Positions 33,848 to 34,403 of a DNA stretch of 64,000 nucleotides are shown piece after piece. Every line of letters begins with the position of its first letter. Position 1 is the stretch's first letter. Both the position numbers and the translations under genes were made by a program. Origin of the DNA: Leucoraja ocellata (lineage: Eukaryota); NCBI GenBank assembly GCA_036785375.1, contig JAWMAR010000253.1:2294001-2358000 (forward strand). The letters are read 5' to 3'. The notes below the pieces were generated by a model. That model was not told the DNA's origin, made no database searches, and worked only from the letters and a program-made list of their open reading frames with translations.

Positions 33848-34403
33848 TTTCAAGGCACAATTCAAGCTGGTGGTTAGATTGGATGCATCGAACGATAAAC
33901 GTTGGGCGGAGAGCACCTTTCCCTCGTTCGTTCTTGTCTGCAGTGTCCAGATCGGGATAGAATTTCATCTCATCCTATATCGTGGTGAGCTGTACCATCT
34001 GATTTTCCGATGCAGGAAAAAAAATCCCAATGTTCCCGATGTTGGGGGAGTCCAGAACCAGGGGTCACAGTTTAAGAATAAGGGGTAGGCCATTTCGAAC
34101 GTAGATGAGGAAAAATATTTTCACCCAGAGAGTTGCAAATCTGTGGAATTCTCTGCTACAGAAGACAGTGGGGGCCAATTAACTGGATGTATTCAAGAGT
34201 GAGTTAGATTTAGCTCTTAGGGCCAAAGGGATCGAGGGATATGGGGAAAAAAAGCAGGAACGGGGCACTGATTTTGGACGATCAGCCATGATCATATTGA
34301 ACAGCGCTGCTGGCTCGAAGGGCTGAATGGCCTACTCCTGTACCTATTTTCTATGTTTCTACGTTTCCTCTCCTCCACTGGCATCCAGTTGACGTAAATC
34401 TCT
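33848..34403 (-). pseudogene. Inverted, disrupted ITSM exon of gene A
   Basis: The reverse complement aligns to 3680-3905: cacgccacag|RDLRQLDASGGEE[CR1 34009-34363, TSD tttcc]NQMVQLTTI*DEMKFYPDLDTA. TAC>TAG at 33975-33977. Confidence 0.85.
34009..34363 (+). mobile_element. CR1 3' fragment inserted in the ITSM exon of gene A
   Basis: CR1 3' end flanked by tttcc direct repeats (34004-34008, 34364-34368). Confidence 0.85.

Follow-up and report, generated by a model that had tools for sequence, protein, structure and literature searches.

Within 64,000 nucleotides of Leucoraja ocellata DNA (the window), three CD2/SLAM-family genes lie in part, amid repeat-rich DNA, and next to one of them sits a broken exon that resembles the ITSM exon of another. 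What does this wreck say about the gene beside it, here called A, and what kind of protein does A make? The earlier note on this DNA held that A had lost its ITSM several ways, by point changes and by an insertion, and that A may persist as a tail-less ligand or decoy. We conclude that the broken exon is probably a dead relic lying antisense to A, and that A probably encodes a CD2/SLAM membrane protein of 277 residues whose 17-residue tail has no tyrosine; this protein would not signal itself and would serve ITSM-bearing paralogs, U among them, as a ligand or decoy. The idea of a short-tailed partner survives, but by a different route than damage to the ITSM exon.

The window holds the tail of U (827-3872, plus strand), the whole of A (24257-31153, plus strand) and the 3' half of a paralog, B (62630-60212, minus strand). 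The last exon of U is 98% identical to L. erinacea XP_055522185.1 and the V exon of A is 94% identical to XP_055522191.1, also of L. erinacea; the orthologs of U and A have adjacent accessions and lie on one L. erinacea contig of 206,166 nt. The tail of U provides the standard against which the relic is read:

827..900, plus strand: tail exon b of U, phase 1 to 0, with a single Tyr, in LYAVI; tblastn 25/25 with P0035
3702..3872, plus strand: last coding exon of U, with acceptors at 3702 and 3708, 6 nt apart, and the ITSM TIYDEI at 3768-3785

TIYDEI fits TxYxxV/I/L, the ITSM consensus given in the accessible part of PMC3958483, and is thus a predicted ITSM; with it the U tail carries one ITSM plus one further Tyr. 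Both acceptors of the last exon are used in isoforms, P0024 and P0018. TIYDEI is present in 12 of the 41 fetched proteins, isoforms counted (11 by script, P0013 added by eye), with Leucoraja, Amblyraja, Rhinoraja, Mobula and Pristiophorus among the carriers, and we take it, from the sequences, to be the ancestral state of the motif. The same exon (3702-3786, plus strand) is also read in a second frame if exon b is skipped, giving a tail of 35-37 residues with two Tyr and no ITSM, a form annotated in Leucoraja, Amblyraja, Rhinoraja and Pristis (P0006, P0010, P0011, P0019, P0023, P0028, P0032). Isoform junctions suggest that the U-type transmembrane (TM) exon, beyond the window, has two donors 4 nt apart. 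The phase-0 donor of the TM exon of A could conceivably stem from a 4-nt deletion.

The relic consists of two pieces separated by an insertion:

33849..34008, minus strand: 3' part of the dead ITSM exon, 82% identical to U 3758-3904, with TAG, ATG, a 2-nt deletion and the old 3' UTR
34009..34363, plus strand: CR1 3' fragment inside the dead exon, 355 nt, with TTTCC at 34004-34008 and 34364-34368
34364..34409, minus strand: 5' part of the dead ITSM exon, 86% identical to U 3675-3747, first acceptor lost and second kept

The peptides quoted in the earlier note are present in U (3735-3791, plus strand) and in the 3' part of the relic (from 34001, minus strand), and the two motif changes it described are real: a Tyr-to-stop change (TAC>TAG) at 33977-33975 and an Ile-to-Met change (ATA>ATG) at 33968-33966, both on the minus strand. 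To these we add a 2-nt deletion after the motif and an AG>CG change in the first acceptor (34411-34410); the second acceptor is preserved, and its phase agrees with that of the TM donor of A. The CR1 does split the exon, with TTTCC on both sides, and removal of the CR1 with one TTTCC copy restores the frame of U. The junction is also found in two related organisms (X1 and X2, contigs of 264 and 267 nt), but these differ at 34006, so that the target duplication there matches at four of five positions. No difference at the stop and Met codons appears in X1 or X2 among the matches listed. The CR1 itself brings a stop at codon 15, eight codons ahead of the Tyr position, and any later change to the motif could therefore not matter. 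Its identity to 11 other CR1 ends in the window is 79-82%, against 89-97% among a younger group, and dating it as old by this divergence was rejected: many related CR1 copies pass 92% in runs, so a different subfamily explains the divergence equally well, and we claim no order of lesions.

Do these changes single out the motif? Against U, 28 of 163 aligned coding bases of the dead exon differ, 2 of 18 within the motif and 26 of 145 elsewhere (Fisher p 0.74). When 28 random substitutions were simulated in 100,000 trials, Tyr and Ile/Val were both lost in 11%, the motif was broken in 70% and a premature stop arose in 55%; the dN/dS between dead exon and U is 0.65 over 53 codons, the constrained branch of U included. 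Changes are no denser in the motif than elsewhere in the exon, and they are thus likely ordinary neutral decay that did not target it, as opposed to repeated targeted loss. Selection that removed the ITSM by several independent changes in a translated exon is extremely improbable: it would account for the alteration of both motif-defining residues, but chance alone yields this in the stated share of trials, the motif changed less often than its surroundings, and once the stop or the CR1 was present more changes would have been invisible to selection on the protein. We also considered selection on the alternative frame of the dead exon, which is open and in which the Ile-to-Met change is stop-to-stop, but many residues change there and we treat the openness as chance. 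As a separate observation, contig depth over the C2 exon and the A-type intron before the short last exon is 253 and 214 in X1, against 42 over the dead exon, and 96 against 23 in X2 (depth windows 28040-28212 and 30822-31193 versus 33787-34053); the ratio of about four to six, depth not being copy number, hints that these related organisms hold several A-type copies but a single relic.

The orientation of the relic bears more directly on its use. It lies on the minus strand and every other exon of A on the plus strand, a point that the earlier note overlooked. It is surrounded by repeats that we take to be CR1, Tx1-like and SINE elements:

32467..32576, plus strand: first part of a SINE-like repeat, 88% identical to B 58053-57944, in the orientation of A; whole in B, broken in A
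32579..33686, plus strand: 3' part of a CR1-type LINE, its 3' end being the left arm of the inversion
33674..35080, minus strand: inverted 1.4-kb segment carrying the dead exon, its upstream intron and the remaining part of the SINE
34438..34851, minus strand: Tx1-like LINE fragment just upstream of the acceptor, 76% identical to 55064-55380, shared with B
35076..35321, minus strand: CR1 3' end forming the right arm, 230 of 246 positions identical to its left counterpart, longest exact run 73 nt

Comparison with B exposes the breakpoint. Positions 62648-57944 of B match A 27997-32576 in the sense of A, and 57939-57499 match the opposite strand, at 35077-34649; the switch comes 5 nt on, within a single repeat that B has unbroken. 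The ancestral order would be that of B, and recombination between two tail-to-tail CR1 ends would be a simple cause of the flip. With the dead exon antisense between the CR1 ends, A cannot splice to it. Among the matches listed for runs X1, X2, X15 and X22, there is no contig spanning a CR1 arm with both flanks. The Tx1-like fragment has a 13-nt target duplication (12/13) and leaves a branch-point-like CTGAC preserved; we rejected it as a splice-killing lesion, the duplication having kept both this motif and the acceptor. Elsewhere in the window, a long LINE at 51777-55477 (plus strand), with endonuclease- and reverse-transcriptase-like frames and a 982-aa stop-free stretch, is presumably Tx1-like, and it is a fragment of a relative that sits upstream of the dead exon. 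Broken transposase frames between A and B (38100-42450, plus strand) we take to be hAT-like and Tc1-like.

Two readings dispense with the inversion. If the relic were the sense last exon of B, 26 kb past the short exon of that gene, its strand would be that of B, and indeed no copy of the exon belonging to B is visible in the window, where it may fall in the 667-N gap at 56250-56916. We consider this highly improbable: a separate copy of the upstream intron and the Tx1-like fragment belongs to B, at 57939-57499, and is only 85% like that of the relic; in addition, the repeat broken at 32576 in A resumes at 35077. Alternatively, the flip could be polymorphic or a fault of the assembly, with an exon that is truly sense and spliceable by A, in which case the CR1 stop at codon 15 would give a second short ITSM-less tail. 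The 73 exact bases shared by the arms and the agreement in phase between the intact second acceptor and the TM donor of A would allow this, as would the three gaps in the window, one of which (200 N) is directly followed by a 98% inverted copy of 60537-61366, at 63172-64000, that may be a duplicated haplotype. The first 48 kb, however, are free of gaps and the dead exon is used by none of five A-type proteins, which makes a false flip quite unlikely; even then the ITSM would not be restored, and the conclusion at the protein level would be unchanged. We therefore proceed with the relic as an inverted, antisense exon.

If A does not use this exon, where does its protein end? We predict the following features:

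24257..24326, plus strand: leader exon of A, 23/24 identical to P0027, GT donor, phase 1
26799..26825, plus strand: optional in-frame micro-exon of 27 nt with AG/GT flanks; the same nine residues occur in L. erinacea isoform P0003
27056..27385, plus strand: V-type Ig exon, Pfam V-set 5.6e-8, best PDB match SLAMF6 at 4.8e-9
28015..28305, plus strand: C2-type Ig exon with four Cys
29669..29778, plus strand: A-type transmembrane exon, phase 1 to 0, best 19-mer hydropathy 2.29
31121..31153, plus strand: sense last coding exon, AG acceptor, phase 0, encoding GNVVAVTDKA and then a stop
31704..31709, plus strand: candidate poly(A) signal, the first AATAAA/ATTAAA past the stop of A

The leader, V, C2 and TM exons are all open, with GT-AG sites and matching phases, in agreement with what the earlier note reported for the ectodomain exons, and we regard this gene structure, taken by itself, as very probably right. 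The predicted protein has 277 residues; Lys-Arg follows its TM helix, and its tail, of 17 residues, has no Tyr and hence no ITSM. Five of the 41 fetched proteins (two of them isoforms of one gene) have an A-type TM exon, and none has a Tyr in its tail. The short GNVVAVTDKA end recurs in four, P0003 and P0027 of L. erinacea, P0026 of A. radiata and, with one change, P0004; the fifth, P0038 of Rhinoraja longicauda (Arhynchobatidae), has a different, Tyr-free end of 63 residues. RefSeq already annotates the gene type with the same short end (XP_055522191.1/193.1 in L. erinacea, XP_032903632.1 in A. radiata) in models that are predictions, bear automatic names only and leave the relic exon, the inversion and the A/U split unmentioned; P0026 is a four-domain model without a leader. 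P0004 has V, C2, TM and short end on a contig of 1,063 nt, its start falling in intron sequence; V to stop takes 4.1 kb in the window, and P0004 would thus have to derive from a spliced form. The short exon at 31121-31153 is likely where A ends.

We also looked for another ITSM-bearing exon to which A might splice, and apart from the relic no tail-exon homologue was found downstream of A in the window. Three plus-strand TxYxx[VI] strings beyond the TM exon (39759, 40835, 58090) were rejected as an ITSM of A, having no homology to the tail exon, and near these two genes' exons, A or B, no match to exon b rose above shuffles (best DNA score elsewhere 30, shuffled maxima 27-41). Reads were mapped to 26900-35400 of the window from runs X1, X2, X15 and X22 (4 of 24 listed runs). 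A joint from the TM exon to 31121 is absent from the 15 of 7,539 joints listed, among which repeats dominate. Run X15, guessed to be RNA, gave contigs over both Ig exons, of which one stops at the donor of C2, whereas the intron bin 27468-27751 has none; these contigs could stem from paralogs as well as from A. Read-through into the intron after the TM exon, adding 14 residues with one Tyr, is possible as a minor form, and is seen in none of the five A-type proteins. Three further Rhinoraja longicauda models (P0007, P0037, P0008) have an A-type leader and end in the intron after C2 or with an unrelated TM and tail; those stopping after C2 have no TM and are possibly secreted or mis-annotated. 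The read-through frame of these models also follows the C2 exons of A and B. A meaningful loss of the ITSM by several routes is not supported, the exon being antisense, bypassed by an upstream last exon and changed as in neutral decay.

Whether A is kept by selection can be asked of its paralog:

62630..60212, minus strand: paralog B, A-type, with C2 at 62630-62341, TM at 61737-61628 and last exon at 60244-60212

B shares the short last exon, and its C2 exon is frameshifted by a 1-nt deletion at 62536-62533 (minus strand), either as a pseudogene or through sequencing error. The dN/dS comparison that the earlier note had proposed for A gives 0.25 for C2 against B (p 0.038; 6.5/67.5 synonymous and 5.5/217.5 non-synonymous sites changed), a weak test with 12 changes and a single frameshifted paralog, in which conversion too lowers exon divergence. 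For C2 and TM exons together p is 0.046, and the TM exon by itself has dN/dS 0.78. The C2 exons mismatch at 11/285 positions (3.9%), against 15/124, 25/252 and 68/618 (10-12%) in flanking introns. Better evidence for selection comes from openness across genera: the A-type TM exon is open in Leucoraja, Rhinoraja and Amblyraja and the leader in Leucoraja and Rhinoraja, and in A these exons are only 33% and 52% identical to those of U, respectively. That A is a young or decaying pseudogene, open through short time or conversion from U, consequently strikes us as very unlikely. The frameshift in B, the repeat-dense locus, the marginal dN/dS test and the capacity of conversion from a working gene to keep exons open all favour decay, but the leader and TM exons lie beyond rescue by conversion and nonetheless stay open, and the A-type contig P0004 appears spliced. 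As the earlier note proposed, A seems to be an intact gene of CD2/SLAM type that has no ITSM and lies beside the ITSM-bearing U; the type is kept in three skate genera.

The two types share their ectodomains and differ in their membrane exons. Among A-types the identity of TM exons is 65-92%, and it falls to 11-33% when A-types are compared with U-types, whereas A and U of L. erinacea are 93% identical in V and 96% in C2. The TM tree (16 rows, 40 columns) separates an A clade (99/98) from a skate U clade (99/99); in the ectodomain tree (15 rows), Rhinoraja A groups with Rhinoraja U (100/99), and as most Leucoraja/Amblyraja forks lack resolution, it is mainly Rhinoraja that carries the signal. 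An ectodomain clade of A-types is rejected at p-AU 1.6e-4 when isoform duplicates, Rhinoraja P0007/P0008/P0037 (no A-type TM exon), two sharks, P0002 and P0015 are omitted, and at 3.5e-6 when the leader is used to class P0007/P0008/P0037 as A and the sharks stay in. Gene conversion or an exchange of exons between the types, judged at the protein level, is the likely cause of this conflict; mis-joined automatic models could contribute. In trees without mammalian rows, the A ectodomain falls with U in a skate-only clade (100/99), which may point to an origin independent of mammalian SLAMF8/SLAMF9.

Another feature separates the types. Two places before the hydrophobic core, all six A-type TM exons (A, B, P0027, P0004, P0026, P0038) encode Arg, and six skate U-types have Ile or Val at this position. 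Such an Arg, at the outer edge of the TM segment, could couple A to an ITAM adaptor, FcR-gamma or CD3-zeta for example, and A would on this account be the activating counterpart of U in a classic activating/inhibitory pair. Homogenised ectodomains are typical of such pairs in the accessible part of PMC5112662, and the best 19-mer of the Rhinoraja protein includes the Arg. In A, however, the best 19-mer begins after the Arg, which follows two Ser and may be a flanking residue, and in Mobula P0012 and P0014, which retain the ITSM, an Arg lies one place deeper. We consider an activating A unlikely, and favour a non-signalling ligand or decoy.

We propose that an A-type gene gained an intronic last exon upstream of its ITSM exon before the Leucoraja/Amblyraja split. 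The bypassed exon would then have gathered the CR1, the stop, the frameshift and the acceptor change, and recombination between the tail-to-tail CR1 ends would have flipped it, then or earlier. Gene conversion would hold the A ectodomain close to that of U, and A would bind the partners of U, be it a pathogen adhesin or, in trans, U itself, while neither SAP/EAT-2 nor SH2 phosphatases would be recruited. Such a ligand in trans or decoy would fit the ectodomain trees. ITSM-less isoforms are already made by U-type genes (P0019-P0023, P0030, P0036), and a separate decoy gene may add little to them. More tentatively, and as a possibility that we would put below an even chance, skates may have a paired SLAM-family system of ITSM-bearing U and tyrosine-free A, in which leader and membrane exons have been apart since at least the split of Rhinoraja from Leucoraja/Amblyraja, the ectodomain has been re-copied by conversion, A serves as pathogen decoy or adaptor-coupled activating partner, and the flipped relic records the making of A from a signalling receptor.

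A dead exon collecting mutations is ordinary, and the more useful part of the locus is a short-tailed A with a conversion-matched ectodomain. The locus shows one concrete way in which a signalling receptor may turn into a short-tailed partner, by a new upstream last exon followed by decay and LINE-mediated inversion of the old one. If A binds the ligands of U, this would suggest that pathogens have exerted pressure on the SLAM receptors of an early-branching jawed vertebrate, and the little skate would provide a testable receptor pair. Short-tailed SLAM members in mammals and conversion-matched receptor pairs in other Ig families are already known, and cyprinid fish and Xenopus reportedly have expanded CD2/SLAM families in which ITSM number varies, which reduces the novelty. 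In literature coverage that mostly excludes subscription journals, we found no account of skate or shark SLAM genes, short-tailed or conversion-matched pairs included, and none of conversion-matched receptor pairs within the SLAM family; PMC4690012 mentions neither CD2 nor SLAM.

By ectodomain, topology and cluster, A would be a CD2/SLAM-type gene lacking the ITSM. Its sequence indicates a type I protein, with leader, one hydrophobic 19-mer and Lys-Arg, and parts of three paralogs lie in tandem within 64 kb. The V domain matches V-set and, aligned to SLAMF6, has no Cys in the VTLP and GLYE strands; the canonical disulfide is therefore absent, as described for the N-terminal IgV of CD2/SLAM proteins in the accessible part of PMC12084948. 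Four other Cys stand at the non-canonical positions 51, 76, 86 and 98, and four in C2 (152, 158, 207, 226) are invariant in 15/15 aligned homologs and would form two disulfides. The V domain is 94% identical to its L. erinacea ortholog, against 98% for C2, the pattern expected of a ligand-binding face under diversifying pressure. The family profile finds SLAMF6 (NTB-A) and CD2 as best PDB matches (7.7e-18 and 3.4e-10), CEACAM chains also matching (1.7e-16) over a shorter stretch, and the V exon alone gives SLAMF6, CD150 and CD84 on top. SLAMF6, SLAMF1, CD84 and CD2 bear signalling tails, and the predicted tail of A has neither ITSM nor Tyr. CD48 and CD58, to which the earlier note likened A, are CD2-family ligands without an ITSM, and CD58 occurs in more than one form.

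In SLAM receptors the V domain does the binding, and ITSMs signal by recruiting SAP and EAT-2, as set out in the accessible parts of PMC3958483, PMC7078004 and PMC12084948. The same portions of the latter two describe mammalian SLAMF8 (BLAME) and SLAMF9 as V plus C2 plus TM with a short ITSM-less tail, basic in SLAMF9, which may act as a ligand. Of the tail-less analogies drawn in the earlier note, SLAMF8/9 fit A well, but CD48 does not, being GPI-anchored without a TM domain (PMC12084948, in part) where A keeps a TM helix and 17-residue tail. A differs from SLAMF8/SLAMF9 in that its ectodomain belongs to a skate-only clade with U. To our knowledge, SLAMF8/9 are not near-identical outside to any signalling paralog. 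A and U, at the protein level, set highly similar ectodomains on distinct TM and tail modules, as do the Xenopus CEACAM pairs, whose ligand-binding domains are near-identical and whose membrane and tail modules differ (PMC5112662, in part). Mammalian CEACAMs, CD300A/C and KIR2DS4 appear, in excerpts of the published accounts, as further paired or decoy receptors homogenised by conversion. The partners in the CEACAM, CD300 and KIR systems carry ITAM-like motifs or adaptor links or are secreted, whereas A belongs to CD2/SLAM and has no activating tail motif.
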